This document shows positions 1 through 51,938 of a DNA stretch of 51,938 bases, one piece after another. A program made the translations under genes and the position numbers. The stretch comes from an uncultured Gammaproteobacteria bacterium (lineage in GTDB: Bacteria > Patescibacteriota > Microgenomatia > UBA8517), in the NCBI GenBank assembly GCA_964420735.1, contig CAYQUL010000001.1, forward strand, positions 1-51,938, read 5' to 3'. The notes under the pieces were generated by a model. The model ran no database searches and had not been told where the DNA came from. It saw only the letters and a list, made by a program, of their open reading frames with translations. Position 1 is the stretch's first letter. Each line of letters begins with the position of its first letter.

Positions 1-1
1 T

Positions 2-949
2 TTTCTCTTTATCTATCGGAAAAACATTCAAAAGAAAGATTTGGGAATCTTTTTCGTGAGTTTTCTTATTTCACTTTCGACAATGATTGTGTCTGAGGCA
101 AAGTTTGGGTTTAAAGGTTTTTCTGGAGTTTTGTCACTTCTTTCAACAGGTGACGCTGTTGTTGCGGGGCACGGACTCGGTGACTTTCTAGTACTCTTCT
201 TAAATCAGATCGGGAGAGTCTACTCTGCCGCAAGCTTTCCTGGAAACGTCGGTTACGGTGCGTTTCTTGTAATACTCCCACTGTTTTTCTTCCTAAAAGA
301 GGCAAAACAGAAAGCTACGTCCTGGGTCTTTTTCCTTGCAGTGTGGCTTTTTTCTCATGCATCAGTTGTAACTGTTGGTGGAACAAGCACCCCGTTTTTA
401 CTGGTAGGTATCAGCCCAGCCGTTTCAATTTTACTTGGGATATTTGCATACAAACTGTTTACAAATTCAAAGCTACTGGCTTTTTGTTTTATTCTTTTTA
501 TTGTTGTATTTCAATTTAAAACGATTAAAGTGGAGGATGCACGAGGTTCAACTTATTTTGCAATTCAAAAGGATTTGGTGATTGTAAAAGAGACTGCGGC
601 ACTTGACTATATGTACCAGAGGGCAAATGGTGAGCCGTTTACAGTCAACAGTTTAACCAGTCCTTTATGGGTAAATATTGTTTGGTCATATCTTTTTAAC
701 TGGTATGGACAATCCCACTATGGCTATCAGCCAACCTGGGTCGGTCGGGGACAAGAAGGACAGGTGATTGCTCTAAGCCAGGCTCTGACGCGTGAAAAGC
801 ATCATTTTTTGATACTAGAACCAATGGCGGGTATTCCATTCCAGTATTTACCTGATATTATTTCCCAGGAGGATACCTTAACAGAACTTGTTGAAGAAAA
901 GTACTTTGGTGAAATTCGTATCCAGTACCGAGAACCTATTACAAAATGA
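2..949 (+). CDS. Polytopic membrane protein, C-terminal part (5' end upstream of window); family not recognised
   Basis: The frame is open from nt 2, with no stop before the listed TTG at 41, and ends at TGA 947-949. Several hydrophobic helices are followed by a soluble tail. The stop overlaps the next start as ATGA. Confidence 0.6.
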   Translation, partial: FLFIYRKNIQKKDLGIFFVSFLISLSTMIVSEAKFGFKGFSGVLSLLSTGDAVVAGHGLGDFLVLFLNQIGRVYSAASFPGNVGYGAFLVILPLFFFLKEAKQKATSWVFFLAVWLFSHASVVTVGGTSTPFLLVGISPAVSILLGIFAYKLFTNSKLLAFCFILFIVVFQFKTIKVEDARGSTYFAIQKDLVIVKETAALDYMYQRANGEPFTVNSLTSPLWVNIVWSYLFNWYGQSHYGYQPTWVGRGQEGQVIALSQALTREKHHFLILEPMAGIPFQYLPDIISQEDTLTELVEEKYFGEIRIQYREPITK

Positions 950-1599
950 ACACATCTACAAAATCAGCAGCACAGCTACACGAACACGTTCCACCTGATT
1001 GGTATTTTCAATCTATGAAAATTAACTTGGGGCAAAGGTATTGGCATAATCGCCGATTCTCAACAGTTATCGCTTTGTCAGAAAAGGTAAATGGGAAAAT
1101 TCTTGATATTGGATGCGCTGACGGAGTCTTTACCTACGAAATAGCAAAAAAAACAAAGGCTAAAAAAATAATTGGAATTGATGTGTTAAAGCCATCAATT
1201 GACTGGTCAAAGAAACACTGGGCAAAGAAGTCAAACCTTTCTTTTAAGGTAGGAAACGCTCATGAGCTTAATTACCCAGATAATACTTTTGACGCGGTGT
1301 ACGCACTGGAAGTACTTGAACACGTCCCGGAACCGATTAAAGTTTTAAAAGAAGTAAAACGTGTTTTGTCTCCTGGGGGATATGCAATCTTTTTAGTTCC
1401 TTCGGACAACAAATTGTTTCAAGGAATATGGTTTTTGTGGACGAAGTTTTGGAGAGGGAAGATTTGGGACGATTGTCATATTCAATCATACAAAGAGCAT
1501 GCCCTTGGAAAGTTATGTAAAAAAGCAGGCCTCACTCTCGAGGTTGATGACACATTTATATTAGGCATGCTTAACGTTGTTAAAGTGAGAAAAGTATGA
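946..1599 (+). CDS. Class I SAM-dependent methyltransferase (Methyltransf_11-like)
   Basis: SAM motif I 'ILDIGCADGVFT' and downstream 'AVYALEVLEHVPEP'. ATGA overlaps on both sides. Confidence 0.85.
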   Translation: MNTSTKSAAQLHEHVPPDWYFQSMKINLGQRYWHNRRFSTVIALSEKVNGKILDIGCADGVFTYEIAKKTKAKKIIGIDVLKPSIDWSKKHWAKKSNLSFKVGNAHELNYPDNTFDAVYALEVLEHVPEPIKVLKEVKRVLSPGGYAIFLVPSDNKLFQGIWFLWTKFWRGKIWDDCHIQSYKEHALGKLCKKAGLTLEVDDTFILGMLNVVKVRKV

Positions 1600-2507
1600 G
1601 CAAAACGTTATCTGTTTCTGTCGTAATACCCAACTGGAATGGGCAGAGCCTTCTTCAAAAAAACCTGGCGGCGGTTCTTGCCTCAATGCGATATAAGAAA
1701 AACCAAATCGGTGAAATAATTATTGTTGATGACGGTTCAACCGATGACTCGGTCAAGTTTCTTAAAAAAGAATACGGTTCAAAAATTCGTTTGATTAAGC
1801 ACACTAAGAATAGAGGATTTGCCTCTTCAGTTAATAACGGTGTCAGAATGGCAAAAGGACAGTTGGTGTGTTTATTAAATACTGATGTAATACCCTCTCG
1901 TGAATTTTTAAGCCACGCACTTGCTCATTTTGAAGACAAAAGTGTTTTTGCTGTTGGTTTGCATGAAAAAGGTGCTGGGCCCGCGGTAGGTTTTTTTAAC
2001 AACGGATTTATTGAGCACAAAGGTGGAAAGGAGACGCAAAATGAGTCATTTTCTTTTTGGGCAAGTGGTGGCAGTGCCGTTTTTCGTCGTAGCCAGTGGA
2101 TGGAACTAAAGGGACTTGATGAAGAACTTTTGACGCCTTTCTATTGGGAAGATGTGGACTTGGGCTACCGGGCATGGAAACATGGCTACAAGATTGTTTG
2201 GGAGCCAAAAAGCATGGTGGAGCATCAACACGAAAGCACCATTAATAAAGACCGTTTTAAGGTTGCCTTTATGAATCGAGTGAAAGAGCGCAATCAGCTG
2301 TTGGTTATTTGGAAAAACATCACCAGTGATAAGTTATTTCGAAATCATATTCAGGGACTACTAAAAAGGATAATCTCCCATCCAGGATATATAAAAGTTG
2401 TTTTTGATGCATTGAAGTTTCGAAAACTGGTACTGGCTAAAAGAACCAGAGAAAAGAAAGAGAGCACCGTTTCAGATGAAGCAGTCTTTGCTAAATTTAG
2501 TATATGA
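1596..2507 (+). CDS. GT2 family glycosyltransferase (rhamnosyltransferase/WbbL-like)
   Basis: 'VSVVIPNWNG', 'IIIVDDGSTDDS', 'LLNTDV' (DxD region), 'WEDVDLGYRAW'. Confidence 0.85.
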   Translation: MSKTLSVSVVIPNWNGQSLLQKNLAAVLASMRYKKNQIGEIIIVDDGSTDDSVKFLKKEYGSKIRLIKHTKNRGFASSVNNGVRMAKGQLVCLLNTDVIPSREFLSHALAHFEDKSVFAVGLHEKGAGPAVGFFNNGFIEHKGGKETQNESFSFWASGGSAVFRRSQWMELKGLDEELLTPFYWEDVDLGYRAWKHGYKIVWEPKSMVEHQHESTINKDRFKVAFMNRVKERNQLLVIWKNITSDKLFRNHIQGLLKRIISHPGYIKVVFDALKFRKLVLAKRTREKKESTVSDEAVFAKFSI

Positions 2508-3295
2508 AACTGACCCTCTCAATTATTATCGTCAGTTATAACACTGAAAAATTGACGATTAGGTGTATTAAATCAATTGACAAACACAAACCTAAGTTTC
2601 CGTACGAAATTGTTGTTGTTGATAACGCCTCCACAGATGGCTCAGTAGTCTTACTACAGAAACTGAAAAATAAAACGCTTACTATTATTAAAAACAAAAC
2701 CAATCAGGGTTTTTCAAAAGCAAACAACCAGGGGATAGCCAAAGCAGACGGAGAGTTTATTTTACTTTTAAACTCTGATACTGAAATTATCGATGACTGT
2801 TTAACTACTTTAGTTACTTTTGCAAAAGAGCACAACGATGCTGGTGTTGTTGCCCCGCAATTGTTGAACGCTGACCGCACAGTTCAGGCTTCCATCTTTC
2901 GACTCCCCACTATCTCTCGTGCAGTCTCCCAATATTTACTCAAAAACAGAGGAATACTTACAAAGTATTCGCTCTCCGGTGACAAAGCCATAAAAGTTGA
3001 ATCAGTCGTTGGCGCAGCTTTTCTTATCACTCCCCAATCTCGGAAAAAAGTTGGTGTTTTAGACGAAAAATACTTTATGTACTTTGAGGATTTGGATTAT
3101 TGCAAAAAAGTAAATGAAAATAACCTTGCAGTTTATTATTTGCCTTATGCACAGGTTATTCACCTTCATGGAGCAAGTGGTAAGGGAAGCGTCAACAATC
3201 TTTTAATTGAGTCAAGCAAAAAATACTTTGGAATTGTGAGATACTATTTATACACATTTGTTTTGTGGATTGGACAAAAATATGGTGAAAACTAA
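2504..3295 (+). CDS. GT2 family glycosyltransferase
   Basis: 'LSIIIVSYNT', 'VVVDNASTDGS', 'LLNSDTE', 'FEDLDYCKK'. Confidence 0.85.
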   Translation: MKLTLSIIIVSYNTEKLTIRCIKSIDKHKPKFPYEIVVVDNASTDGSVVLLQKLKNKTLTIIKNKTNQGFSKANNQGIAKADGEFILLLNSDTEIIDDCLTTLVTFAKEHNDAGVVAPQLLNADRTVQASIFRLPTISRAVSQYLLKNRGILTKYSLSGDKAIKVESVVGAAFLITPQSRKKVGVLDEKYFMYFEDLDYCKKVNENNLAVYYLPYAQVIHLHGASGKGSVNNLLIESSKKYFGIVRYYLYTFVLWIGQKYGEN

Positions 3296-5042
3296 TACAA
3301 CTCCGTTATGGAAACAAACCAAGTTTATTTTACTGTTGATTGTTGTTGCTGCCGCAGTCCTGCGTTTAGCTGGCTTGACGCAAGTGCCTGTTTCGCTCTT
3401 TGGAGATGAACTTGATGTTGGCTATCACGCGTATTCATTCTTAAAAACTGGGAAAGACTATTCAGGGAATTCCCTTCCGATGCACTTTCAGAGTTTAGCT
3501 GAGTGGCGCACTCCGCTTTATCTTTACGCTGCCGTCCCAACCGTTGCAATTTTTGGAATTAGTCCACTTGGCGTCAGGCTACCAGCTGCACTATTTGGAA
3601 TAGCAACTATTCCTTTGTTTTATCTTCTCGTTAAGGAGATTGTCGGTGGAGGGGTTGAGACAGATCGTGCACGCAAACTTGGACTGTTTGCAGCTTTTTT
3701 GCTTGCCTTCTCACCTTGGCACATTCAATACAGTCGAGCAGCTTTTGAAGTTACCCAGTTGTTGTTCTTCTTTATAGGGGGTATGTATTTTTTTCTTCGT
3801 GCACTGAGGGACAAGGGGTCTTTGCTGTGGCTGTCAGGGATTTTCCTTGGACTTATGCCGTGGGTGTATAGTACTGCAAAACTTTTTTTGCCATTTTTTC
3901 TTGTTGCAATGGCAGTTCTTTATTTTAAAGAAATCTTTAAATTGCCCAAACGTGCTCTGCTTATTGGTGTCTTGTCACTTGGATTGGTACTTACTCCAAT
4001 TACCTGGAGTACCTTGTTTGGTGGTGGAACACAACGATTCAACTACATAAGTGTTTTTTCGGACCCCACGGTAGAGCCTGAAATTGGTACGGCAAGAGGA
4101 ACAGATGCACATAATCGAGGGGAAACCGGAACTGGTCTTAACCCAACCGTTATTGATAGAGGATTTCACAACAAATTCACCTATTGGGGTGAGACAGTTT
4201 TGCATAACTACTTTATGCCTTTTTCATCCGAATTTCTCCTGTTAAGAGGAGACCCCAATCCTCGTCACTCAATTGAAGGAATGGGAGAGTTTTATAAATA
4301 CGAAATTATTGGTCTTATTGCAGGACTTGCCTTTTTTCTTACCAAAAGCGAAAACAAAAAAAGCAAATGGCTCATTGCCTTGTGGACCTTACTTGGGGTC
4401 ATTCCATCAAGCCTTACCAGAGATGGAGGAAACCACGCAACTCGTTTAATCTTGATTCTTCCTCCCCTTTTGTTTTTGGTTTCGTATGGATTTTACTATC
4501 TTGTTTCATCACAAAAGAGATTGAAAGTGCCACTTATTGGTTTATATATAATTGTCTTTATCCTTTCCTTTGTTTCATATCAGCACTTATATTGGGTACA
4601 CAACCCGTCACAGTCTGAGAGGTGGTGGCACTATGGTTGGGGACCGGCAATTAGTGAAGTAAAACAAATACAGTCTGAGTTTGATAACGTCATTATAACC
4701 AGTGCTGACGAGCCTCCCTGGATCTTTTTTGCAGCTTGGTATGAATTTGATCCTGTACAGTGGCACCAAGGGTATCCAATGAAGAAACACAATATCCCGG
4801 GTTTTGGCGATATCAGTTATATAGGTAAATTCTCGTTTGGTAATTTTGAAGGTAAAAAAGGGCTATATGACTGGGGTAAAATACTAGACGACAAAACGCT
4901 TTACTTAGCCTCAGCAAAGGAAGTAAACGTTAACCTGATCGCTGAGCCTGAGCGAACACCAAAGGACCTAAAGATGATTAAGTCGTTTGCCTATCCTTCA
5001 GGTGAACCTGCTTTCTATCTATTTACTGGTGTTGCCAGATGA
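3282..5042 (+). CDS. GT-C membrane glycosyltransferase, GT39/PMT_2 (ArnT/PMT-like), paralog 1 of 6
   Basis: First periplasmic loop 'FGDELDVGYHAYSFLKTGKDYSGNSLP' carries an acidic DE pair. 'FSPWHIQYSR', many TM helices and a soluble C-terminal domain are present. ATG at 3282 is preferred over the TTG-extended 3258. Confidence 0.8.
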   Translation: MVKTNTTPLWKQTKFILLLIVVAAAVLRLAGLTQVPVSLFGDELDVGYHAYSFLKTGKDYSGNSLPMHFQSLAEWRTPLYLYAAVPTVAIFGISPLGVRLPAALFGIATIPLFYLLVKEIVGGGVETDRARKLGLFAAFLLAFSPWHIQYSRAAFEVTQLLFFFIGGMYFFLRALRDKGSLLWLSGIFLGLMPWVYSTAKLFLPFFLVAMAVLYFKEIFKLPKRALLIGVLSLGLVLTPITWSTLFGGGTQRFNYISVFSDPTVEPEIGTARGTDAHNRGETGTGLNPTVIDRGFHNKFTYWGETVLHNYFMPFSSEFLLLRGDPNPRHSIEGMGEFYKYEIIGLIAGLAFFLTKSENKKSKWLIALWTLLGVIPSSLTRDGGNHATRLILILPPLLFLVSYGFYYLVSSQKRLKVPLIGLYIIVFILSFVSYQHLYWVHNPSQSERWWHYGWGPAISEVKQIQSEFDNVIITSADEPPWIFFAAWYEFDPVQWHQGYPMKKHNIPGFGDISYIGKFSFGNFEGKKGLYDWGKILDDKTLYLASAKEVNVNLIAEPERTPKDLKMIKSFAYPSGEPAFYLFTGVAR

Positions 5043-5725
5043 TACTTTATCTTCTTATAGTCCTTTTTGTGCCCTGGACTGTTGTGCTACTAACTAACCC
5101 ACCAATTTTTCTGTTGGTTCTAGCAACAACTATCGTTTCTATTTTGTTTTCCCAAAAAAGAAGGATTTTAACTGTTCTAGTTTTGCTTTTATGTCTTTTT
5201 CAGTATTTTCAGATTACTAAAACCCCACTTGTTTCGAACTCTCCAGTTCATCAAGTTGAAATAAAACACAACTTGGCTGCATACCCGCCATTACCACTAC
5301 CAGTTGCCTACTGGTTTGAACAAAAAGATATTACACAAAAGATATTTGCATTGTCACTTAGAAGCGGAGAGGTGTTAAGCCCTTCACTTTACTTTTTTTC
5401 AAATCACCCCAGAGAACGGGCGGGATATCGTGAATTTGAGAAATTTCAGTATGTACTTCTTCCATTCTTTATATATGGACTTTTTTCGCTTTTCAGGAAG
5501 AAAAAGCACTACCTATTATTTATACTTTTTGTGCCAGGATTTATTTTGTTTACTTTGTTTGGAAATAGAGGAGAGGCAGGACCATTTTTGTTTTTTCCCT
5601 TTATTGCCTCGTTAACTTTTTACGGACTTCGTGAGTTTTTCCCAAAACGAAACAAAGCCTTGATTGCTTTCCTTGTTGTTTTTGTACTTGTCACTATTCA
5701 AACTTATGCGTATACCATCTCTTAA
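5039..5725 (+). CDS. Small polytopic membrane protein; resembles the central segment of the flanking GT39-like paralogs but lacks the DE loop
   Basis: Hydrophobic throughout. 'SPSLYFFSNHPRERAGYREFEKFQYVLLPFFIYGLF' lines up by eye with 'SSEFLLLRGDPNPRHSIEGMGEFYKYEIIGLIAGLAF' of paralog 1. ATGA overlap with the upstream gene. Confidence 0.5.
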   Translation: MILYLLIVLFVPWTVVLLTNPPIFLLVLATTIVSILFSQKRRILTVLVLLLCLFQYFQITKTPLVSNSPVHQVEIKHNLAAYPPLPLPVAYWFEQKDITQKIFALSLRSGEVLSPSLYFFSNHPRERAGYREFEKFQYVLLPFFIYGLFSLFRKKKHYLLFILFVPGFILFTLFGNRGEAGPFLFFPFIASLTFYGLREFFPKRNKALIAFLVVFVLVTIQTYAYTIS

Positions 5726-7391
5726 AATCACGTTGATTGAACTTGCTTTAATTTTTGCTGTTGGAGCATTAGTCTTTTTTATTAAACTTTCTACAATTCC
5801 TTCTGGCATGTATATTGATGAAACGCTACCTGCTTATAGCGCTTACTCAATCATCAAGACTGGCCGCGATGAATATGGAAAAGTGTTTCCGCTGGTTTTC
5901 CGTTTTTACGGGTCGTATAACCCTCCACTCTTTATTTACCTTACTGCTATTTTTGAGTCGGTATTAGGACTCACCCCGCTAGCTGTTCGTTTACCTTCAT
6001 CACTTGCCGGACTTTTAAGTGTTATTCCAATCTATCTACTTTTGAAAGACAAACTTCTTAAAAATTCGCTCACGTCATTTGTCTCTGGGATCTTTTTTGT
6101 AATAACACCCTGGATTGTTTTACATAGTCGAGTTGGGTACGAAGTAAGCCTTGGATATCTACTACTCTCCCTTGGTGTTTATTTTACTTATCGAGGTTTG
6201 ACCCAGGGCAAATATCTAGCAGTGGGTATGATGTTTTTGTCATTATCAACGTATGCCGCTTACGCTGAGCGGTTTATTGTCCCATTTTTTATTATCGGAA
6301 TACTCATTTTCTTTCAGCGCAGTCTATTAATCATAAAAAACAAAACAAACTTGCTTATTTGTGCTTTGGTTGGTCTTGTTACACAAATCCCTAATCTTTG
6401 GCTTGTCACAACTCCGGCATTTTTCCCAAAACAAAATTTAGTTGGAAGTGGCATAGTTGCAGCCTCTGCCGAGAAAATCGCCCATTTTCTGCCTTACCAC
6501 GTGAGTTTCATTCTTGCATTTCTTCGTGAGTTTCTGTCTCAATATGTAACTTATTTTTCACCACAATCTCTGTTTTTTGTTCCAGATCCAGATTTGCAAC
6601 GTTCAATTCCGTACCTCTCTGTCTTTTATGTTTGGATGATTATCCCATTTTTCATTGGCTGTTTTGCTTTATATAAAAATTACAAAACCACCTTAGGAAA
6701 AGTCATTCTAACTTTGCTTATCGTGTCCCCAATTCCTGCTGCGTTAACTCTTGACCCTTTTTCAACCCATCGGGCACTTCCACAGCTTTTGCCACTGTTT
6801 CTTATTATTGGTTTAGGTATAGATTGGCTTTTAGTTAAAACTACTAGGGCTCGTGGATTACTTTTGGTTGTGATTGTTTTTGCCATATCACTTCTTTTTC
6901 TTTGGAGAAGCTATTTTGTACTTATGCCCTATACCAGAGCACAATATTGGGGATATGGACATGAAGCGTTAACTGTTTTTATCCAGAATCACCCCAATGA
7001 CCAATTTGTAATTGATCAAACGAGAATTAAGCCTGTATACAGCCAACTCGCCTTTTATATGAAATTTGACCCAGCTGAATTTCAAAAAAGCATTGACCCG
7101 AGGCTGGTCACAAATTACTATAATAACCTGCCGTTTAGTGGTCACTTTACCTTTGGAAATATTGATACTCGTGGCATAGTTTGGGAAAGTGATATATACC
7201 GTGACCTTATTCTTGTGGGGGACGACTTGACTATTTCAGACAAACAAGCAGAAGAGCACGCGCTGACTCAAGTGTTTACAATTAATGACCCTAGAGGAGA
7301 TACCCTTTTTAAGGGCTTTAAAACAAACCCCGCAAAAAAATGTAGAATAAGTAATTATGCGAGTGAAAAATGCGCTAGTTTTAAACCGTAA
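5706..7391 (+). CDS. GT-C membrane glycosyltransferase, GT39/PMT_2-like, paralog 2 of 6
   Basis: 'YIDETLPAYSAYSIIKTGRDEYGKVFP', 'ITPWIVLHSR', 'YVTYFSPQSLFF', C-terminal 'FYMKFDPAEF'. ATG at 5706 is preferred over the extended 5664. Confidence 0.8.
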   Translation: MRIPSLKITLIELALIFAVGALVFFIKLSTIPSGMYIDETLPAYSAYSIIKTGRDEYGKVFPLVFRFYGSYNPPLFIYLTAIFESVLGLTPLAVRLPSSLAGLLSVIPIYLLLKDKLLKNSLTSFVSGIFFVITPWIVLHSRVGYEVSLGYLLLSLGVYFTYRGLTQGKYLAVGMMFLSLSTYAAYAERFIVPFFIIGILIFFQRSLLIIKNKTNLLICALVGLVTQIPNLWLVTTPAFFPKQNLVGSGIVAASAEKIAHFLPYHVSFILAFLREFLSQYVTYFSPQSLFFVPDPDLQRSIPYLSVFYVWMIIPFFIGCFALYKNYKTTLGKVILTLLIVSPIPAALTLDPFSTHRALPQLLPLFLIIGLGIDWLLVKTTRARGLLLVVIVFAISLLFLWRSYFVLMPYTRAQYWGYGHEALTVFIQNHPNDQFVIDQTRIKPVYSQLAFYMKFDPAEFQKSIDPRLVTNYYNNLPFSGHFTFGNIDTRGIVWESDIYRDLILVGDDLTISDKQAEEHALTQVFTINDPRGDTLFKGFKTNPAKKCRISNYASEKCASFKP

Positions 7392-8682: not shown

Positions 8683-8688
8683 ATCCTC

Positions 8689-20043: not shown

Positions 20044-20049
20044 AAATTA

Positions 20050-22090: not shown

Positions 22091-22092
22091 AT

Positions 22093-36297: not shown

Positions 36298-36342
36298 AAT
36301 GCACAAGTATTATCCATACAGATGTGTGCGTCAAGTATCCCC

Positions 36343-42522: not shown

Positions 42523-43223
42523 AGAACCTTAAAGTAGTTATTGTATTACCGGCATATAACGCTGCCAAAACGCTAAAAAAAACATACCAGGATATACCCA
42601 GGGGAAAAATGTTTCGAACTATATTAGTTGATGATGGTAGTCGTGATACAACGGTTAAACTTGCACACAAAATGGGAATAGATGTGTATACGCATCCGCA
42701 AAATAGGGGGTACGGTGGTAATCAAAAGACATGCTATACCATTGCCCTTTCTAAAGGGGCTGATATTGTTGTGATGATTCATCCAGACTATCAGTATGAT
42801 GCGACACTAACCCAAGAACTCATTCAACCGATTATTAAAGCTAAAGCAGATATTATGTTAGGTTCTCGCATTCGAAGCAGGAAAGAAGCCTTAAGTGGTG
42901 GAATGCCACTTTATAAATATATCAGTAATAGATTTTTGACTATGGTTGAAAACATTGCTTTAGGTCTTAATCTTTCTGAATATCATACTGGTTTTCGTGC
43001 ATATAGCCGCCGCTCGTTAGAATTAATTCCGTTTCATAAATTCTCAGACGACTTCGTTTTTGATCAGCAAGTGCTTCTATCTGCAGCGAAGCTAGACCTT
43101 CGTATTGGTGAGATACCAGTTCCTGTGAGATACTCACCTGAAAGTTCGTCGATAAACTTTAAACGGTCAGTAAGATACGGGATAGATACATTGTTTTACC
43201 TGTTTTTGACGATTATTTCTTAA
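42519..43223 (+). CDS. GT2 glycosyltransferase, DPM1-like
   Basis: 'VVIVLPAYNAAKTL', 'ILVDDGSRDTT', 'IHPDYQYD', 'SEYHTGFRAYSR'. Confidence 0.8.
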   Translation: MKNLKVVIVLPAYNAAKTLKKTYQDIPRGKMFRTILVDDGSRDTTVKLAHKMGIDVYTHPQNRGYGGNQKTCYTIALSKGADIVVMIHPDYQYDATLTQELIQPIIKAKADIMLGSRIRSRKEALSGGMPLYKYISNRFLTMVENIALGLNLSEYHTGFRAYSRRSLELIPFHKFSDDFVFDQQVLLSAAKLDLRIGEIPVPVRYSPESSSINFKRSVRYGIDTLFYLFLTIIS

Positions 43224-43225: not shown

Positions 43226-44053
43226 ATGAACAAAATACCTGAAATTTCAGTTGTAATGCCAGCTTATAACGCAGAAAAGTATATTGGCGCGTCAATCGAA
43301 AGCATTTTGCGGCAGACATTTAAAAATTTTGAATTGATTATTGTTAACGACGCCTCAACTGACAAAACATTATCAATTATTAGAAAATATGCAAGAAAGG
43401 ATTCTCGAATACGGTACAAAAGCAACAAGAAAAATAGCCTGATCGCCCACTCACTAAATGTAGCAATTGGCATGGCTAAGGCACCAATTATTGCACGAAT
43501 GGATGGAGATGATATCTCAACTGATGATCGTTTAGAAGCACAACTTGCGGTCCTAAGAAAGCATAAAAAGATTGCGGTAGTGGGGGCAAACCTTACGGTT
43601 GTTGATACAAATGGCATGGTAGTTTCAAAGAGAGAGTATCCAACAGACTCAAAAAGTTTAAAAAAACTAATGTTTAGGTACAGTCCGTTTTCACATCCAG
43701 TAGTTATGTTTCGAAAAAGTGTTTTCGAAGAATTCGGGGGATATCGAACTGATATTTTTCCCTGTGAAGATATTGATATGTGGTTCAAAATCGGAAGCAA
43801 GTATGAATTTGCAAGCATTAACAAGCCACTCTTAATTTATACACTTATCGAAAACTCAAGCAGTCATAAAAAACTTCGGAAGCTTGAGCTGTTGACCTTT
43901 AAAATTAGGAAAAACGCAATTATGAAACTCGGGTTTAGACCAAGTATGTATGATGTTTTCTATAATGTGGGCCAATTCGTTTCGCTATGGTTTATCTCCC
44001 CTAAAATGCGTATCCGGATGTACGATTTTTTAAGAAAATATGAACTAATATAG
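43226..44053 (+). CDS. GT2 family glycosyltransferase
   Basis: 'ISVVMPAYNAEKYI', 'IIVNDASTDKT', 'RMDGDDIS', 'CEDIDMWFK'. Confidence 0.85.
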   Translation: MNKIPEISVVMPAYNAEKYIGASIESILRQTFKNFELIIVNDASTDKTLSIIRKYARKDSRIRYKSNKKNSLIAHSLNVAIGMAKAPIIARMDGDDISTDDRLEAQLAVLRKHKKIAVVGANLTVVDTNGMVVSKREYPTDSKSLKKLMFRYSPFSHPVVMFRKSVFEEFGGYRTDIFPCEDIDMWFKIGSKYEFASINKPLLIYTLIENSSSHKKLRKLELLTFKIRKNAIMKLGFRPSMYDVFYNVGQFVSLWFISPKMRIRMYDFLRKYELI

Positions 44054-45774: not shown

Positions 45775-46472
45775 TTTGTTTTTTGTGCTACTAAATACAC
45801 TTCAGCAAAGCCTTTGTTACTGTATCCCTCTTTAATTTTTTGTACCAGCCATTTTGGCTTATATACTGTGGTCCCCACGGTATGTTTGATCACTAGTTCA
45901 ACATTATGCATCAATAGTTCCCATATGTTTCCGACTAACTGTGCACTTTTAACTTTTAAATTATTGTCTGCTAGTAACTTCTTTAGTTGACCTACAGAAT
46001 AGTGCCTGTGTCCAATCAAAAAAAATGCAGGATCAAATAGTATTGAAATGACGTGCCTATTAGGGGTACTCAAAACCAGATGACCACCAGGTCTTAGAAC
46101 TCTGTAAATCTCTGACAAAACTTGCCCTTCGGTGTTAACTGGGACGTGCTCGATTACGTCCATGATGGTTACAGTGTCAAAAGACTTGTTTTTAAATGGC
46201 AGCTTCTGTGCCTCAGACACAAAAAAAGCGGCTTTAGGCGTCATACGCTTTGCAAATGCGATTGCTTTCTTGTTTGGGTCAATGCCAGTGACTGATTTTG
46301 CAAAAGGGAATATAAGCGAGTCAAATTGACCAGTCCAACAACCAATATCAAGAACATCTTTTCCCTTTACATATTTTTTGGAATAACTGGCGTTAAATTG
46401 GTGGTGAATTGACGGTTTGGTGTCGGTTGTTTCACATAACGTCCGTCGCTGTGACTCTTGGTTTTTTGACAT
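45771..46472 (-). CDS. Class I SAM-dependent methyltransferase
   Basis: 'VLDIGCWTGQF', 'TVTIMDVIEHVP', 'LRPGGHLVLSTP'. ATG at 46472 is preferred (TTG at 46502 is possible). Confidence 0.8.
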   Translation of the reverse strand: MSKNQESQRRTLCETTDTKPSIHHQFNASYSKKYVKGKDVLDIGCWTGQFDSLIFPFAKSVTGIDPNKKAIAFAKRMTPKAAFFVSEAQKLPFKNKSFDTVTIMDVIEHVPVNTEGQVLSEIYRVLRPGGHLVLSTPNRHVISILFDPAFFLIGHRHYSVGQLKKLLADNNLKVKSAQLVGNIWELLMHNVELVIKHTVGTTVYKPKWLVQKIKEGYSNKGFAEVYLVAQKTN

Positions 46473-46493
46473 TGTGGTTGAAAATTCATTCAC

Positions 46494-46503
46494 ACTATAC
46501 AAT
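46494..46503. promoter_or_regulatory. Overlapping divergent -10 boxes
   Basis: On the + strand, TACAAT (46498-46503) lies 7 nt upstream of ATG 46511. On the - strand, TATAGT (46494-46499) lies 21 nt upstream of the ATG at 46472. The intergenic region is 38 nt. Confidence 0.35.
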
Positions 46504-46510
46504 ATGTTGT

Positions 46511-47308
46511 ATGAGTAATAATACCGTCATTCATTGTATCGGAGATAGTCATGTCGATTTTTTATCAGGGTATAACAATATTCAACCTGAATGGCCACTT
46601 TTGCACCACGATCGAGTTCCACTTTTTAAAACATATCGATTAGGTGCTGTTCTTGCATATACCATTTCTAAAAAAGGTTCACATGGGCACGAGGCCCTTC
46701 ATTCACTTCTTACGACAATTCCGCCTAAAAGCTATGTCATGCTCATGCTTGGTGAAATTGATTGTAGGGTACATTTAATTAAGCAGGCAAAAAGTCAAAA
46801 AAAACCTGTTAGTGTCGTTGTCAAAAAGTGCGTAGATAACTATTTTTCAAGTATCGAAGAAATCAAAAACGCTGGATATCAGATAATTGTTTGGGGTGTG
46901 ATACCTTCCACTCGTTTTGAAGTACAAGATGATTCGTATCCTACAGTTGGGACATGTCGTGAGAGAAATGAAGTGACTAAATTATTTAATCTACATTTAG
47001 AAGCCAAAGCGAAAAGTAAAAATCTTCCATTTTTGTCGCTCTATAACGATCTTGTTGACGCAGATGGGCTCACTAATATGAAGTATTTTATTGACCTGAT
47101 ACACCTTTCAACACGTGCTATTCCTCTAGTTATAAAGAAAATGAGTACCATAGTCCCACTGTCCAGAAATGTCCAAAGTGAGTCTATGAAAGTTTATTGG
47201 GCAAATTACATAAGATATTACATAACCAGAAGACTCTTGAATTTTTTGGTGATACACCTTAGAGTCTACCCAGTTGCACAAAGACTCTCTCAATCACTAA
47301 AAAAATGA
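46511..47308 (+). CDS. SGNH/GDSL-type hydrolase (putative glycan O-acyl esterase/transferase)
   Basis: Block I 'HCIGDSHVDF' (GDS) and block V 'IDLIHLS' (DxxH). ATG at 46511; the listed 46409 TTG extension overlaps the divergent gene. Confidence 0.6.
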   Translation: MSNNTVIHCIGDSHVDFLSGYNNIQPEWPLLHHDRVPLFKTYRLGAVLAYTISKKGSHGHEALHSLLTTIPPKSYVMLMLGEIDCRVHLIKQAKSQKKPVSVVVKKCVDNYFSSIEEIKNAGYQIIVWGVIPSTRFEVQDDSYPTVGTCRERNEVTKLFNLHLEAKAKSKNLPFLSLYNDLVDADGLTNMKYFIDLIHLSTRAIPLVIKKMSTIVPLSRNVQSESMKVYWANYIRYYITRRLLNFLVIHLRVYPVAQRLSQSLKK

Positions 47309-48981
47309 AAAAGCACTTAGTTATTCTCTCCATTCTGCTTTTTCTTGTTGCTGTGTATTACCTGCCACTTACAAAAGCGTATTTTCAACAAGATGAATGG
47401 CTCGCTTTTGGCAACTATTATGGTTTAGCTAGCCACTCAGTAATTTCCCTTTTGAAAAATTCATTTGCAGCCAATATTGGCCACTATATCCCGCTATACT
47501 ATTTATCCTTCTATGGTCTTGTGAGCATTATTCAAACCAACTTTGTTATTTGGCAAGTATTAAGTATCATTTGGCATCTAGCGATTACTGTTTCAGTTTA
47601 TATCCTCCTTAAACGACTTTTTTTGAACAATAAGCTTGCACTGCTTGGCACGGCACTTTTTGGCTTTTCAGGCAGTGCCCATCAGGCAACGTCGTGGGTT
47701 ATTGCGGATACAAATACTCATGGAGCTACTCTTTTGGGAATAATAAGTTTAATTTTTGCAGGCATGGCAGCAGGAAAAAGAAATGAGAAAAAATATATTG
47801 TTCTTTCAATTGTAATGTTTATAACTTCGCTTCTTTTTAAAGAGACAACGATCGCGCTTTTTGTCTGCTCGCCAATTCTTTTCCTTTTGATGAAGTTTGA
47901 CTCGTTTAATAAGTCTCTTAAAGCGATATTAGTTCCTTGGTCCGTCGCAGGAGCAGGATATATTTCGCTTAGGGCTTTAATGTTTTTGCTCCCTCATGCA
48001 AAAACGACTGCATCTGTTGCAACACAAAGTCAGACAATCTGGGAAATTGCCTTAAATATGATTACTTTTCCGTCTAAAGCACTTGCCCAGAGTTTGATTC
48101 CCTCTAAATGGTGGCTCAGGTTTTCTGAAAGTATTTTGGGAAGATTACATATAACCGGTGGAAACGACGTTCATACAACTGGTTTTGTTGAATTTGTAAG
48201 TGGCTTTCTAGGGGCCTTTTTTGTAACTGTGTTTATCGTAGCAATCATTTTTGTTGTTTTCGCGTGGTTGAGAAATGCAAATGACAAAAATGTTCGCCTA
48301 ATGGTTTTTTCAATTGTGTTTGTTTCTCTAAACAGTTTTATTATTGCTTTTTCTCCAGAGCGCACTGGAATTATTACTTTTATCGATTCTAGAAATTTAT
48401 ACTTTCTACTTGTAGGAGCAATTGTGTTCCTTCTTGCTTTTATTCAGTACTTCAATCTTTTTGAAGTAAAGAAAAAAACATTATATCTATCGTTTGTTTG
48501 CATTTTTCTTCTAAATATTTCAGCAGGGTTATTTGATTTTCGTGACTTAATTACAATAGGAAGAACACGTGCTCAAATTCTCACCGAGTTAAGCAAGCAG
48601 ATTCCGCAACTGTCTGAAAAACAAGTAATTTTTTTGGAAAGTGATGCAAGTTATTATGGTTTACCACAAAGTGAGCCCATACCGCCGTTTCAGTCGGGGT
48701 TTGGCCAAACGCTTTTGATTGTTTTATCTAAAAGAGGCGCTTTTCCATCATCCTTTTATTCTCAGAATTTCCTTTGGGGTATTACCTCGCAAGGATATCG
48801 AGAGCAAGATGGACGAGGATTTGGTTTTTATCGGAAATACAACGATTTGTTGTCAGACCTTAAGCAATACAACATATCTCCAGAAAAGGTGGTATCTTTT
48901 AGGTGGAGAAGCAATACAGAAGCACTAACTAATCAAACTGAGATTGTACGCACAAAGTTAAATAACGATTTACGAAAATGA
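47305..48981 (+). CDS. Polytopic membrane protein, putative GT-C
   Basis: About 12 TM helices, an acidic pair 'YFQQDEWLAF' in the first loop and a soluble C-terminal domain. The layout is similar to the N-terminal half of the 39907 gene. Confidence 0.45.
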   Translation: MKKHLVILSILLFLVAVYYLPLTKAYFQQDEWLAFGNYYGLASHSVISLLKNSFAANIGHYIPLYYLSFYGLVSIIQTNFVIWQVLSIIWHLAITVSVYILLKRLFLNNKLALLGTALFGFSGSAHQATSWVIADTNTHGATLLGIISLIFAGMAAGKRNEKKYIVLSIVMFITSLLFKETTIALFVCSPILFLLMKFDSFNKSLKAILVPWSVAGAGYISLRALMFLLPHAKTTASVATQSQTIWEIALNMITFPSKALAQSLIPSKWWLRFSESILGRLHITGGNDVHTTGFVEFVSGFLGAFFVTVFIVAIIFVVFAWLRNANDKNVRLMVFSIVFVSLNSFIIAFSPERTGIITFIDSRNLYFLLVGAIVFLLAFIQYFNLFEVKKKTLYLSFVCIFLLNISAGLFDFRDLITIGRTRAQILTELSKQIPQLSEKQVIFLESDASYYGLPQSEPIPPFQSGFGQTLLIVLSKRGAFPSSFYSQNFLWGITSQGYREQDGRGFGFYRKYNDLLSDLKQYNISPEKVVSFRWRSNTEALTNQTEIVRTKLNNDLRK

Positions 48982-51860
48982 AAAAAATAATCACAAAATA
49001 TAAGTATGTAGTTCTTGTCATATTAGGTTTTTTCCCATTGGTTTGGTTTGTTAAATATCCTACGGCAATTATTGATGGACTTGATACCAATTTTCCGTTA
49101 GACCCAATCGTTTGGTTTGTAAGAAGATTGTATATATGGAACGATGTTTTAAACGGTGGGCTCCATTTTAGTTCTTCAGTTGCAGGCCTCTTTTTTCATT
49201 TTTTACAGGTATTGCCATATGTACTTGGTATTTCTCTTCAAATAGTTGAACTAAGTAATATCTTGTTCTGGTCACTTTCTATAATTTTCGCCTCGTACTT
49301 TTTTGCAAGAGTTTTTGTTTCAAAGAGGTTTGTTATTCAGCTACTTTTTGTGGCACTTTATAGCTTTAATATTTATTTATTTAATACGTGGGAAAATATT
49401 AAAGTGGCAAATCTATCATTAATGGTTGGATTACCACTGCTCGCAAGTATTTTAAAATTAAGTGTTGAAAAGAAAATAAGCTGGAAGAAAACCATCTTTT
49501 TTTCAACATTAGTAGGAGTGGTGAGTGCGGGAACTGGAATTAATCCTGCATATTTTATTTGTCTCTTAGCAGGGGTTGGAATTTACCTGTTGGTTTTACT
49601 AGCAGTCAAGCAAGATAGAAATGAAACACTTAGGCGTTCAAGTGTGGTCTTTATTCCATTTATTTTAGTGAATGCATTTTGGATAACCCCGTTGGTGGAT
49701 TTTTTGTTTATATCAAACACTGTGCAAACACTTGAATCAATCGGTTTTACAAACTGGGTTGCAAGTTTATCTGTTAATACAAGCCTATTAAATGTAATAC
49801 GCCTCCAAGGAGCATGGGACTGGTACATAAAAAACGACTATGGTGTTCCGCTCTATATTCCGTACGCCTCGCGCTACTTTTATAGCACTCCCTTTGTCTT
49901 ATTTAGTTTTGTCACCCCGATGCTTGCGTTTGCAGCATTTGCTTATCGGAAAGTTGAGAAAATGGAACAATATTTGTTTTTTTCAGTTTTAACAATCCTA
50001 GGAGTTTTTCTCGGTGCAGGACTTCATGAGCCCACTGGTGTTTTATTTAACTTTCTCCTACATAACCTCCCATTTTTTAGTTTTTTTAGAAGCCCTTGGT
50101 ATATTTTCACTCCATTCACCATCATTGGACTTGCGGGGCTATCAGGATTATTTGTTGAGGGACTTTTTGAAAGGTTTGAAACTAAAAAAATATATAGAAT
50201 GTTTTATTTCAAACACGTATTAGTTATCGTGACCGCCAGTTTGGTTGTCGGTCAACTTGTGTATTCATATCCTCAAATTACTGGCAAAATTTTTAGACCA
50301 GGGAGAGATGACAGTTTTTACCAAACATTTCCTGATTATGTCTTTGAAGCAAAAGCACTACTTTCAAAAAGTGACTACGGAAGAATTGTTACATATCCAG
50401 ATGACCAGCTTGAAAGTTTTAAATGGGGTTACAAGGGAACAGAATCAATATTAGGTTTGTTTTCCTCAAAAGAAGTGATTGCCCCATCGTTTAACTACCC
50501 AAACCAATATCTTTCTACACTTGTGGAGCGGTTCTACAGCAGTTTAAAGCGCGGTGAGTTTGTGACCGCCTTTGAAATGTCGCATATCCTTGGCGTTGAC
50601 AGTATGTTTGTTAAAACTGACACTGTTTCGCTTGCACCAAATATTCTTCTAGAATTAGCTCGATTTACTCAGGAGCGAATCGATATTAAAGATTGGCATT
50701 TTATGAAAATAAAACCGGAATACGCTACGACTAAATTCCAAATACCTAAATATATCTATTCAACCGATCTAACCCCCGTCAGGCTTGCCGATTTATCTCG
50801 TTTTATCTCAAAGGACAGTGTTCTTGTATCAAATAGTGACAGCCAACTAGCTTTGTTTCCTGAAATGCACGACAAAATTGCATTAATTAGTCAAGGAAAG
50901 CAGGCGGATATAAGTTCTAAAGACACGCTTCAGTTTACATATACAACAAAAAATCCTGAAGAATATACACTTTACCTTACGGGATATAAAATTAATCCTA
51001 GTGAACTCGTTATTTCAGTTGACAATGTTCCTGTTCCACCACGCAGTGTTTCGACATCAGAGAATGTCATTATAGTCAGTCTTGCAAAAGCCGTAATGGG
51101 TGAGCACACCTTAACAGTTAAACTCCCTCAATCATCGGCTAACATATTGCAGACTGCAGAAGTCTCCGTTATTGGCAGTCCAACGATCGGAACATTAAAA
51201 TACTTCCCCGTTGATAACTTTGATCCATTTAGAAAATATGAAGTGTCTTTCGAATTCAAATACGATTATGGTGATTTGCCAAGTATACGAGTTGCTCAAT
51301 CTGGGCCTAACTCGCCGTACAAAATCGAACCAATAAATTTAATTAGAAACCCAGACTGGCTTTCAGAAAAGTTTATTTTTTCACCTATAGAACTCGCATC
51401 AAAATTGGAACTTATCATCCAGCAGCCTATTCAAAAAGCTTTTACTAGTAGATCTACTTTTAGAAACATACAGATAAGTAACATAACTGAAAACAAATTG
51501 TACATTATTGAAAAAGCCAAGCCAATTAGGACCGACGAAACAACCTTAACATATGTTAAGCAGAATCCGACAAAATACGAACTTGAAGTTAAAAATGCCC
51601 CTGACGGCTATTTTATTGAAATGAAGGAAGGATATCACAAAGGTTGGGGGATTGCCTCAAACGACTATATCGGTGGTAAGCAGGTACATATGACAGCAAA
51701 TGGCTATGCAAACCTATGGTATGTACCAGTGGGGGGAGATGCAAATATACAAGTCTCGTTCTTTGGGCAAAAACTATACGTCTTGGGATTGTTAATTAGT
51801 GGTTTTGTACTCCTTATTACTTTCACTTTTTTCATATATGAACAGAAGCGTAATAAGTAA
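48978..51860 (+). CDS. Large GT-C membrane protein, DUF3367/AftD-like (alpha-(1->3)-arabinofuranosyltransferase family-like) with big extracytoplasmic domain and C-terminal TM anchor
   Basis: N-terminal 'DGLDTNFPLDPIVWFVRRLYIWNDVLNGG....GLFF' follows the AftD-family pattern DTK..L..nP..Fl.R....Wn.....G.....G.LF as I recall it. About 13 TM helices, then about 500 aa of soluble beta-rich sequence, then a terminal TM 'LYVLGLLISGFVLLITFTFFIY'. Confidence 0.55.
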   Translation: MKKIITKYKYVVLVILGFFPLVWFVKYPTAIIDGLDTNFPLDPIVWFVRRLYIWNDVLNGGLHFSSSVAGLFFHFLQVLPYVLGISLQIVELSNILFWSLSIIFASYFFARVFVSKRFVIQLLFVALYSFNIYLFNTWENIKVANLSLMVGLPLLASILKLSVEKKISWKKTIFFSTLVGVVSAGTGINPAYFICLLAGVGIYLLVLLAVKQDRNETLRRSSVVFIPFILVNAFWITPLVDFLFISNTVQTLESIGFTNWVASLSVNTSLLNVIRLQGAWDWYIKNDYGVPLYIPYASRYFYSTPFVLFSFVTPMLAFAAFAYRKVEKMEQYLFFSVLTILGVFLGAGLHEPTGVLFNFLLHNLPFFSFFRSPWYIFTPFTIIGLAGLSGLFVEGLFERFETKKIYRMFYFKHVLVIVTASLVVGQLVYSYPQITGKIFRPGRDDSFYQTFPDYVFEAKALLSKSDYGRIVTYPDDQLESFKWGYKGTESILGLFSSKEVIAPSFNYPNQYLSTLVERFYSSLKRGEFVTAFEMSHILGVDSMFVKTDTVSLAPNILLELARFTQERIDIKDWHFMKIKPEYATTKFQIPKYIYSTDLTPVRLADLSRFISKDSVLVSNSDSQLALFPEMHDKIALISQGKQADISSKDTLQFTYTTKNPEEYTLYLTGYKINPSELVISVDNVPVPPRSVSTSENVIIVSLAKAVMGEHTLTVKLPQSSANILQTAEVSVIGSPTIGTLKYFPVDNFDPFRKYEVSFEFKYDYGDLPSIRVAQSGPNSPYKIEPINLIRNPDWLSEKFIFSPIELASKLELIIQQPIQKAFTSRSTFRNIQISNITENKLYIIEKAKPIRTDETTLTYVKQNPTKYELEVKNAPDGYFIEMKEGYHKGWGIASNDYIGGKQVHMTANGYANLWYVPVGGDANIQVSFFGQKLYVLGLLISGFVLLITFTFFIYEQKRNK

Positions 51861-51867
51861 AAAAGCA

Positions 51868-51938
51868 ATGATCCTTAAAAAGGACATTAATAACGAATTT
51901 CAACACTTTGAAATAAAGATTGGTGACTGGTCGCACAA
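51868..51938 (+). CDS. Start of a further gene (3' end beyond window)
   Basis: From ATG at 51868 the frame stays open to the window edge ('MILKKDINNEFQHFEIKIGDWSH'). Too short to classify. Confidence 0.3.
   Translation, partial: MILKKDINNEFQHFEIKIGDWSH

Follow-up and report, generated by a model that had tools for sequence, protein, structure and literature searches.

Sugars are added outside the cytoplasm by integral membrane glycosyltransferases (GTs) of the GT-C type in several known systems. These include the assembly of lipomannan, lipoarabinomannan (LAM), and arabinogalactan in mycobacteria and corynebacteria (Ppm1; PimE, MptA/B/C, EmbA-C, and AftA-D), the three-component systems (GtrA/GtrB/GtrC; CsbB/GtcA/YfhO; polyprenyl-phosphoribose synthase with a MATE flippase and GT136), the ArnC/ArnT system for the aminoarabinose of lipid A, and glycosylation in the lumen of the endoplasmic reticulum (ER; DPM1/ALG5; ALG3/9/12/6/8/10; PIG-M/PIG-V; PMTs). 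A MATE-family flippase and a GT-C bearing a carbohydrate-binding module (CBM) have been demonstrated in a three-component system (PMC11127046). Here, we analyzed contig CAYQUL010000001.1, whose whole length of 51,938 bp is called the window below. From its sequence, the contig probably carries most of a large envelope-glycoconjugate locus, in which GT-C enzymes would act one after another on the outer face of the membrane with polyprenyl-phosphate sugars as donors. The mechanism, extracytoplasmic glycosylation by polyprenyl-phosphate sugars and GT-Cs, is of a known kind, while the configuration of the locus and its product appear to be undescribed.

The homologues of the membrane proteins of the window came from Patescibacteria, the closest named ones being Candidatus Woesebacteria and Microgenomates. 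The original prediction, which had been read from the letters of the contig, had proposed a taxonomic classification as a check; judged by these homologues, the closest relatives of the contig are Woesebacteria and other Microgenomates (Patescibacteria, or candidate phyla radiation, CPR). A large part of bacterial diversity falls within the CPR, whose members attach to other cells and possess very small genomes. Papers on CPR genomes counted 20-29 glycosyltransferases and called the make-up of the envelope unclear (PMC5220378, PMC7143001), and a protein-family survey listed membrane families enriched in Microgenomates that were mostly hypothetical and unnamed.

In the open-access full-text literature, we found no description of an array or expansion of GT-C, GT39, or ArnT enzymes in CPR, Patescibacteria, or Microgenomates. 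The prediction that such a pathway had not been described for such organisms agrees with this search, although an absence of this kind cannot prove it and single genes have already been annotated automatically by NCBI as GT39, ArnT-family, DUF3367, or AftD-family. As a pathway type in the general sense, the claim of novelty did not hold, since the logic of three-component and LAM-type systems is already known.

GT-C proteins of the locus

Every open reading frame (ORF) was scanned against Pfam with gathering cut-offs, and transmembrane (TM) segments were counted by a simple hydropathy scan. The minus-strand labels 31198(-) and 36346(-) denote the genes 31195..32133 and 36343..37041, respectively, and related loci carry L numbers.

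Ten membrane proteins had been proposed as GT-Cs with confidence and five as putative members, and all 15 were supported, at differing strengths, by Pfam, family profiles, or structure models (Table 1). Nine candidates passed a Pfam gathering cut-off themselves, five were placed through orthologues, profiles, or predicted structure, and one was a fragment; the GT-C genes together occupied 51% of the window bases. The cut-off for PMT or PMT_2 was passed by eight window proteins (3258, 5664, 8689, 11948, 13590, 15263, 29120, and 37722). The 14 full-length candidates had 7-12 TM segments, and the AlphaFold2 (AF2) models of 13590 and 39907 showed multi-helix bundles, whose top matches in the suggested Foldseek comparison were exclusively GT-Cs.

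An invariant or near-invariant acidic residue was found 30-63 residues from the N-terminus in all seven alignable GT-C families, namely D38/E39 (the array described below), D35 (7357), D63 (18865), D38 (10296), D37/D38 (39907), D30/E31 (47305), and D36 (48978), with conservation of 96% or more within each family. A similar N-terminal acidic residue was seen by eye in the single sequences 29120 and 37722. The position of this loop-1 residue just after the first TM segment suggests that it is external.

The families of the locus were all connected in an hhalign network. At E <= 0.01, 16 of 38 orthologues of 18865 matched PIG-V Mannosyl_trans2 and 14 of 38 matched PMT_2. The family profile of 7357 matched glycosylphosphatidylinositol mannosyltransferase 1 (E 1.8e-8) and ALG6 (E 3.5e-6) in the PDB, and aligned with the array family at an hhalign probability of 96%. 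For the AF2 model of 39907 (pLDDT 89.4), the top 22 Foldseek PDB matches were all GT-Cs (STT3, AglB, PglB, DPY19, ArnT, and ALG12), and a profile match identified the C-terminus as a CBM32 domain. The 47305 family aligned with the 39907 family at 99.7%, and an orthologue of 47305 with 64% identity (P0251) scored 34.8 bits on PMT_2. The 10296 family reached 95.7% with the 39907 family and 93% with the 48978 family, and a 10296 orthologue showed a faint YfhO match. Protein 48978 itself had no Pfam match to the GT-C_AftD model at E < 0.01; its orthologues P0122, P0130, P0141, and P0145 scored 28.9-38.3 bits on that model (PF11847, cut-off 26). Among full-length relatives of the fragment 2-949, L022:2219-3637 passed PMT_2 with 34.5 bits and L034:2356-3765 fell just below with 24.6 bits.

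Conserved core and the ArnT-like array

Six of the GT-C genes formed an array (ORFs 3258, 5664, 8689, 11948, 13590, and 15263). Its members matched one another in phmmer at E 1e-35 to 1e-83, were 26-34% identical to a reference paralogue, and shared an invariant DE motif. The AF2 model of paralogue 13590 (pLDDT 89.7, pTM 0.90) placed an external alpha/beta domain at the C-terminus, after the TM domain. Its best Foldseek match was ArnT (5f15, TM-score 0.53/0.55), with 5f15 and 5ezm both at probability 1.0 and TM-scores of 0.51-0.55; AglB, STT3, PglB, ALG9, Pmt4, ALG12, AftD, and Emb followed, and AftB was also listed.

The conservation scan used one genome per GTDB species and yielded 80 loci, of which 41 were fully flanked; taxonomy was taken from the record titles alone, and orthogroups were assigned from the best-hit margin to the window paralogues together with synteny. 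The titles named six candidate phyla (Woese-, Shapiro-, Collier-, Ames-, Gottesman-, and Daviesbacteria). A locus of ~21 kb contained a median of five array-type genes (maximum 7), or seven GT-Cs when the X, Y, and V types were included (range 4-9), and the margins between best and second-best paralogue had medians of 89-190 bits. The recurrent order was GT2 GT2 1 (s 2) X 3 (Y) 4 5 6 GT2 GT4 V Wzx DPM1-like GT4, where the numbers are the array paralogues. Among the fully flanked loci, the order 4-5-6 was kept in 38/41, 5-6-GT2 in 39/41, and 4-5-6-GT2-GT4 in 36/41.

Because one-to-one paralogues recur in a fixed order across candidate phyla, the duplications that gave rise to the array would be older than the divergence of these lineages, with each copy kept since. 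By margins and synteny, the six ArnT-like paralogues behave as ancient one-to-one orthogroups. The original prediction had asked whether the locus is conserved or strain-specific: it is not strain-specific, and its core is kept across the Microgenomates group, with variable cassettes. The fixed order of one-to-one orthogroups across the six candidate phyla also favours non-redundant GT-C roles, and by analogy sequential ones comparable to those of ALG3/9/12/6/8/10 or of the Mpt, Emb, and Aft enzymes.

Many array-bearing loci (L004, L007, L008, L010, L011, and others) came from records titled 'uncultured Gammaproteobacteria' or 'Pseudomonadales' and had the same gene order, and one array-bearing record was titled Clostridia and one Chitinophagaceae. 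The 'Gammaproteobacteria' and 'Pseudomonadales' titles of these metagenome-assembled genome (MAG) records are probably wrong.

Donor synthases, flippase, and cytoplasmic transferases

Three GT2s of the window (31198(-), 21299, and 42519) resemble makers of lipid-linked sugar donors. Residues 5-294 of 31198(-) matched the solved structures of ArnC (E 5.5e-49) and GtrB (E 1.8e-33), and the hydropathy scan placed a hydrophobic, presumably TM, region at its C-terminus (residues ~263-293). The best solved relative of 21299 was dolichol-phosphate-mannose (DPM) synthase (5mlz, E 1.9e-14, residues 12-236), and this protein was 89% identical in a close relative. These synthase-like genes lend contextual support to the use of lipid-phosphate-linked sugar donors that we infer for the GT-Cs of the window, and, together with the flippase, strengthen the earlier proposal of extracytoplasmic assembly from lipid-linked sugars, which had not singled out the synthases.

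The flippase gene 20050 lay between GT-C 18865 and the synthase-like 21299, which it overlapped by 23 bp, and the order V-(W)-d was found in 31 of the 80 loci. This trio parallels the three-component design with a MATE-family flippase and a CBM-bearing GT-C (PMC11127046). No GtrA-type small flippase was found in the window. ORF 42142 (126 aa) was considered as such a flippase and rejected, because it lacks a TM segment and continues the CBM32 domain of the upstream gene in frame.

The adjacent synthase, flippase, and GT-C also fit a reading in which the GT-Cs would be modifiers in the style of Gtr, YfhO, or ArnT, each attaching single side-chain sugars to a polymer or lipid that another pathway supplies and mainly varying the surface toward phages or hosts. 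Such modification could be directed at peptidoglycan-linked polymers, teichoic-acid-like molecules, or scavenged membrane lipids. The faint YfhO match among 10296 orthologues, the position of ArnT as best fold match, and cassettes that vary even among close relatives point in the same direction. However, an array of one-to-one orthologues in fixed order over six candidate phyla looks like a conserved core function rather than diversifying decoration, and no backbone pathway was visible in the window, although it may lie elsewhere in the genome. We consider this reading somewhat unlikely.

Outside the GT-Cs, Pfam confirmed the inventory of the original prediction (10 GT2, 3 GT4, 1 GT10, 6 methyltransferases, a radical-SAM enzyme, a deacetylase, an epimerase, a CapD-like dehydratase, and a Wzx-like flippase); the call of an SGNH esterase was weak, with a score below its cut-off (Table 1). 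The view that assembly takes place largely outside the cytoplasm is borne out by the GT-Cs and donor synthases, but the 14 cytoplasmic Leloir transferases are present as well. The most conserved neighbour of the array was GT2 16905. Two conserved GT4s were examined for likeness to PimA or PimB, which would favour the start of a lipoglycan, and gave generic GT4 matches only.

Proposed function

The gene content suggests the following scheme. The epimerase and the CapD-like dehydratase would tailor nucleotide sugars in the cytoplasm, where soluble GT2, GT4, and GT10 enzymes may assemble side chains or a primer bound to lipid or protein. The three GT2s of DPM1/GtrB/ArnC type would charge polyprenyl phosphate with single sugars, and the MOP/Wzx-type flippase may carry these lipid-linked sugars, or an oligosaccharide, across the membrane. 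Fifteen GT-Cs of at least five families, each responsible for a defined sugar or linkage, would then glycosylate an acceptor outside the cytoplasm, and the methyltransferases, the B12 radical-SAM enzyme, the deacetylase, and the possible esterase would decorate the product. With few donor synthases and a flippase feeding about 15 GT-Cs, such a scheme would be three-component logic on a larger scale.

To judge by the CBM32 domain and the AftD-like ectodomain, at least some of the GT-Cs would act on a glycan acceptor. A conserved GT-C skeleton combined with variable transferase and methyltransferase cassettes would yield a common core glycan with lineage-specific decoration, and for the product a lipoglycan, a wall-linked polymer, and the glycan of a glycoprotein are all conceivable. 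More tentatively, and as a possibility that falls short of an even chance, an ancient extracytoplasmic assembly line of at least nine GT-C orthogroups in fixed order, operating in the manner of the ER-lumen ALG series or of mycobacterial LAM synthesis, may build a conserved, probably essential, and unrecognised envelope macromolecule of Microgenomates, for example a lipoglycan or a wall polymer that replaces teichoic acid. If so, the locus is possibly among the most GT-C-dense biosynthetic loci known.

Several results weigh against an envelope-glycoconjugate locus of this kind. No window ORF had a Pfam match for an initiating phosphoglycosyltransferase, an ABC transporter or exporter, or a chain-length regulator, and a Wzy polymerase gave sub-threshold signals only (17.3 and 21.4 bits, in the 228-aa ORF 5039), in agreement with the original prediction, which had recognised none of these components. 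The search for initiator, Wzy, and chain-length genes covered the window and about 20-kb flanks in relatives, and an NCBIfam scan of ten unclassified or membrane proteins returned only a sub-threshold Wzy-like match and a sub-threshold Agl23 match. A joint profile of the six array paralogues matched no PDB sequence at E < 0.1, so that fold comparison was needed for the array, and the Foldseek TM-scores to solved GT-Cs were moderate (0.27-0.55 for the models of 39907 and 13590). The GT-C 39907 (~870 aa) is interrupted within its CBM32 domain by a single in-frame TAG codon at 42115-42117, which leaves ORFs of 736 and 126 aa in the same frame; the homologues of 39907 (~880 aa) are uninterrupted, ORF 42142 matches their C-terminus, and the TAG may reflect a nonsense mutation, readthrough, or an error in sequencing. 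The specificity for the donor sugar is not readable from the synthase sequences. Finally, the best solved relatives of GT2 16905, over its N-terminal ~90 residues only, were GmaR, an O-GlcNAc transferase that acts on flagellin, and SunS, which S-glycosylates peptides. This likeness hints weakly at a protein or peptide acceptor and fits a glycoprotein product rather than a polymer.

GT2 16905 also bears on the reading of the locus as a protein-glycosylation island, in which PMT- or ArnT-like GT-Cs would each modify distinct secreted or surface proteins (type IV pilins, S-layer proteins, or adhesins) without making a joint polymer. Ten proteins belonged to Pfam PMT or PMT_2 when orthologue-based matches were included, and the Foldseek lists contained the oligosaccharyltransferase subunit STT3, PglB, AglB, Pmt4, and DPY19. 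In addition, CPR cells rely on pili and surface proteins, and glycosylation of pilins has been predicted in Saccharibacteria (PMC11623550). Nevertheless, the MIR domain, a hallmark of eukaryotic PMTs, had no Pfam match in any window ORF, the best structural match was ArnT and not a PMT, the CBM32 and AftD-like ectodomains indicate glycan acceptors, and at least nine co-ordered GT-C orthogroups with many Leloir transferases surpass what simple O-mannosylation needs. We regard such an island as unlikely.

If a genome of ~1 Mb indeed spends roughly 6% of its DNA on one glycan locus, it must depend on the product, and a core conserved across Microgenomates points to an unstudied major surface molecule. 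The product is a good candidate for a role in host attachment, phage recognition, or envelope integrity. The six-fold ArnT-like family provides a natural series for studying how GT-Cs gain new acceptor or linkage specificities, and the order GT2-GT2-1-X-3-Y-4-5-6-GT2-GT4-V-Wzx-DPM1-GT4 may be useful as a genomic marker for Microgenomates.

Gene content and extent of the locus

The window is one complete contig, and the locus is therefore cut at both ends, as the original prediction had stated. It had also described about 45 co-packed genes; we counted 44, which covered 98.5% of the bases, and 33 of the 43 gene junctions overlapped or were at most 10 bp apart (Table 1), a packing that suggests translational coupling. 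No tRNA or Rfam RNA family was found in the window. Promoter-like sites occurred at chance level and terminator-like sites below it, and transcription units were not definable.

Table 1. Genes of the window and the basis of their assignment (S-adenosylmethionine, SAM; aa, amino acids)
Position	Strand	Predicted product	Basis and remarks
2..949	+	C-terminal fragment of membrane protein 'z', probably PMT_2-type GT-C, clipped by contig end	~5 TM; no Pfam match of its own
946..1599	+	Class I SAM methyltransferase	Pfam Methyltransf_23/11, E about 1e-24
1596..2507	+	GT2 'a2', cytoplasmic	Glycos_transf_2 86 bits; precedes array in many loci
2504..3295	+	GT2 'b2', cytoplasmic	Pfam 98 bits; best solved relative PDB 5tze (which we take to be TarS), generic GT2 match
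3258..5042 (likely start 3282)	+	ArnT/GT39-like GT-C, array paralogue 1	PMT_2 35.2 bits; DE motif
5039..5725	+	Small membrane protein, 228 aa	~5 TM; sub-threshold Wzy-like only; orthologues without Pfam match
5664..7391 (likely start 5706)	+	ArnT/GT39-like GT-C, array paralogue 2	PMT_2 39.4 bits
7357..8631	+	PIG-M/ALG6-like GT-C 'X'	Family profile; present in 41 loci
8689..10299	+	ArnT/GT39-like GT-C, array paralogue 3	PMT_2 42.4 bits; PMT 34.7 bits
10296..11951	+	PTPS_related/YfhO-like GT-C 'Y'	PF10131 55.7 bits
11948..13609	+	ArnT/GT39-like GT-C, array paralogue 4	PMT 40.5 bits
13590..15266	+	ArnT/GT39-like GT-C, array paralogue 5 (modelled representative)	PMT_2 32.5 bits
15263..16903	+	ArnT/GT39-like GT-C, array paralogue 6	PMT_2 33.7 bits
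16905..17768	+	GT2 'g2'	Pfam 61.6 bits; present in 68 loci
17850..18896	+	GT4 'g4'	Glycos_transf_1 83 bits; present in 61 loci
18865..20043	+	PIG-V-like GT-C 'V'	Own PMT_2 score just 20 bits; orthologue matches
20050..21321	+	MOP-superfamily (Wzx-like) flippase 'W'	Polysacc_synt 57, Polysacc_synt_3 56 bits; ~13 TM
21299..22090	+	DPM1-like GT2 'd', candidate polyprenyl-phosphate-sugar synthase	Solved relative 5mlz; present in 53 loci
22075..23202	+	GT4 'g4b'	Glycos_transf_1 108 bits; PDB matches generic
23228..23455	+	Single-pass membrane protein, 75 aa	Conserved with 67-aa gene in L001
23514..24044	+	DUF5667 protein, N-terminal TM segment	PF18915 36.9 bits
24024..24974	-	Polysaccharide deacetylase	PF01522 28.3 bits
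24956..25696	-	SAM methyltransferase	Methyltransf_11 87 bits
25742..26581	+	NAD-dependent sugar epimerase/dehydratase	PF01370 131 bits
26563..27693	+	GT4	Glycos_transf_1 117 bits
27656..29089	+	CapD/PglF-like nucleotide-sugar 4,6-dehydratase	Polysacc_synt_2 358 bits
29120..31198	+	PMT_2-type GT-C, 692 aa	PMT_2 41.9 bits
31195..32133	-	ArnC/GtrB-type polyprenyl-phosphate glycosyltransferase, donor synthase by homology	ArnC and GtrB matches
32177..32989	+	GT2	Pfam 89 bits; orthologue in L085
32878..34008	+	GT2 with TM segments	Pfam 86 bits; orthologue in L085
34021..34689	+	SAM methyltransferase	Pfam
34690..36306	-	B12-binding radical-SAM enzyme	Radical_SAM 47.7 bits; B12-binding 29.3 bits, below cut-off 32.1; similar gene in L086
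36343..37041	-	GT2	Pfam 97 bits; closest window paralogue ArnC-like 31198(-), phmmer E 3e-17
37103..37750	+	SAM methyltransferase, conserved partner of 37722	Pair kept in L083, L085
37722..39920	+	PMT-type GT-C, 732 aa	PMT 40.4 bits; orthologues in L083, L085
39907..42522	+	GT-C with C-terminal CBM32/discoidin domain, in-frame TAG 42115-42117	AF2/Foldseek; profile matches CBM32
42519..43223	+	DPM1-like GT2 'd2', candidate donor synthase	Sole solved relative DPM synthase 5mlz
43226..44053	+	GT2, variable cassette	Pfam 120 bits
44054..45073	+	GT10 fucosyltransferase-like, variable cassette	PF00852 68 bits; absent from L083
45070..45774	+	FkbM-type methyltransferase, variable cassette	PF05050 92 bits
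45771..46502	-	SAM methyltransferase	Pfam
46409..47308	+	Possible SGNH/GDSL esterase (weak)	Lipase_GDSL_2 19.9 bits, below cut-off 32.9
47305..48981	+	PMT_2-like GT-C, paralogue of 39907 family without CBM32	Orthologue PMT_2 match; hhalign
48978..51860	+	AftD-like GT-C, 960 aa, conserved partner of 47305	Orthologues reach GT-C_AftD

The contig comes from a MAG and one GT-C gene carries an in-frame stop, which would suit a chimeric assembly or a group of decaying pseudo-enzymes that lack a coherent function. Chimerism is unlikely because the GC content was even along the window (0.35-0.41) and both halves were collinear with a single 123-kb contig of a related MAG at near-equal spacing (33.7 kb vs 34.2 kb), with 59-89% amino-acid identity in the core; this speaks to the concern about chimeric assembly in the original prediction from composition and collinearity. 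The same organisation in independent genomes, acidic catalytic residues kept in all aligned families, and dense packing with overlapping genes further oppose chimera and decay, which are largely refuted and strike us as highly improbable.

The second half of the window had its own conserved anchors, namely 32177 with 32878, methyltransferase 37103 with GT-C 37722 (kept in L083 and L085), the CBM32 GT-C with the DPM1-like 42519, and 47305 with 48978 (kept in L083, L085, and L086). In L083 and L086, 42519 had 67-74% identity and likewise adjoined the CBM32 GT-C. On chromosome OZ246419.1 (0.81 Mb), the array was located at 348-370 kb and the downstream part at 374-396 kb, with 4.7 kb between them; if this gap belongs to the locus, the super-locus would span at least 48 kb, or about 6% of the genome. 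A third genome had the same order across about 69 kb, with an interior stretch of 24.5 kb outside the comparison. Past the point that corresponds to the end of the window, L083 (14536-21611) encoded unannotated membrane proteins (636 and 845 aa), a further Wzx-like protein, a GT2, and a methyltransferase. Since the locus runs on in this close relative, the true super-locus is longer than the contig.

The cassette at 43226-47308 (GT2, GT10, FkbM methyltransferase, methyltransferase, and possible SGNH esterase) was matched in L083 (5814-10004) by a GT2, a methyltransferase, a GT2, a short-chain dehydrogenase/reductase, and a methyltransferase. Such a difference between close relatives resembles the variable regions of O-antigen loci. 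The B12 radical-SAM gene adjoining a GT2 (34690-37041, minus strand) recurred in a distant genome (L086 2419-4777), together with a second radical-SAM gene and a carbamoyltransferase. This context may point to unusual C-methylated or carbamoylated sugars.

The largest intergenic gap, of 311 bp, contained the small ORF 23228-23455 (75 aa, single TM segment), whose counterpart is the 67-aa gene at 19991-20194 of L001, where short flanking DNA motifs were conserved too. The DUF5667 protein 23514-24044 followed the conserved core in the window and in L001, L007, L011, and L029. The 5039-5725 protein was present in just five loci and was encoded directly upstream of array paralogue 2 in three of them.

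Comparison with known systems

Like the mycobacterial and corynebacterial LAM and arabinogalactan pathways, the locus would combine serial GT-Cs outside the membrane with lipid-phosphate sugars made by a GT2 synthase. It also encodes GT4 enzymes, which in mycobacteria carry out the cytoplasmic start, and GT-Cs with C-terminal carbohydrate-binding domains. Orthologues in one of its families reach the Pfam AftD model, and AftD, Emb, and AftB were among the fold matches; the comparison with Emb, Aft, and Pmt proteins in the original prediction is apt as an analogy. The mycobacterial genes are dispersed in the genome, whereas those of the locus are concentrated together, in a non-actinobacterial phylum and a genome under about 1.3 Mb. 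The window also had no match to UbiA- or DprE-type (decaprenyl-phosphate-arabinose) genes and no PimA-specific signal in the two GT4s, and it is dominated by a six-fold ArnT/GT39-like set without a PDB sequence match.

With the three-component systems, the locus shares the adjacency of a synthase-like gene and a GT-C (18865-22090), with a MOP-family flippase that may fill the role of the dedicated one, an ArnC/GtrB-like enzyme, and a CBM-bearing GT-C. It differs in its proportions, about three synthases and one flippase to fifteen GT-Cs, where the known systems have one of each, and in lacking a GtrA-type flippase; furthermore, the known systems decorate a polymer with an evident pathway, and none is visible here.

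The likeness to the ArnC/ArnT system lies in ArnT as the best fold match, in 31198(-) as a full-length ArnC homologue, and in the architecture of a TM domain with a C-terminal alpha/beta domain. Unlike that system, the window had no match to ArnA, ArnB, or ArnD-type domains (formyltransferase, aminotransferase), and sequence similarity to ArnT was below profile detection. According to CPR genome analyses, CPR bacteria in general, rather than this organism specifically, make no lipid A or lipopolysaccharide (e.g., PMC5220378).

ER-lumen glycosylation likewise uses a series of distinct GT-Cs with donors of the dolichol-phosphate-sugar type, and the locus has a PIG-M/ALG6-like protein (7357), a PIG-V-like protein (18865), and DPM-synthase-like GT2s. 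In contrast, the locus is a bacterial operon-like cluster, and the window contained neither an STT3/PglB-type Pfam match nor a MIR domain. The Wzx/Wzy loci for O-antigen or capsule resemble it in the Wzx-like flippase, nucleotide-sugar tailoring, many Leloir transferases and methyltransferases, and variable cassettes between conserved genes, but the window is without an initiator, a convincing Wzy, Wzz, or an export apparatus, and GT-Cs dominate.

Taken together, the locus is not a member of the mycobacterial, three-component, ArnC/ArnT, or ER-lumen pathways, because it comes without MIR, without a 4-amino-4-deoxyarabinose (Ara4N) or decaprenyl-phosphate-arabinose context, without an initiator or Wzy, and without detectable sequence similarity to ArnT. 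Its enzymology is familiar from these systems, and its configuration is unusually dense, ancient, and conserved across Microgenomates.

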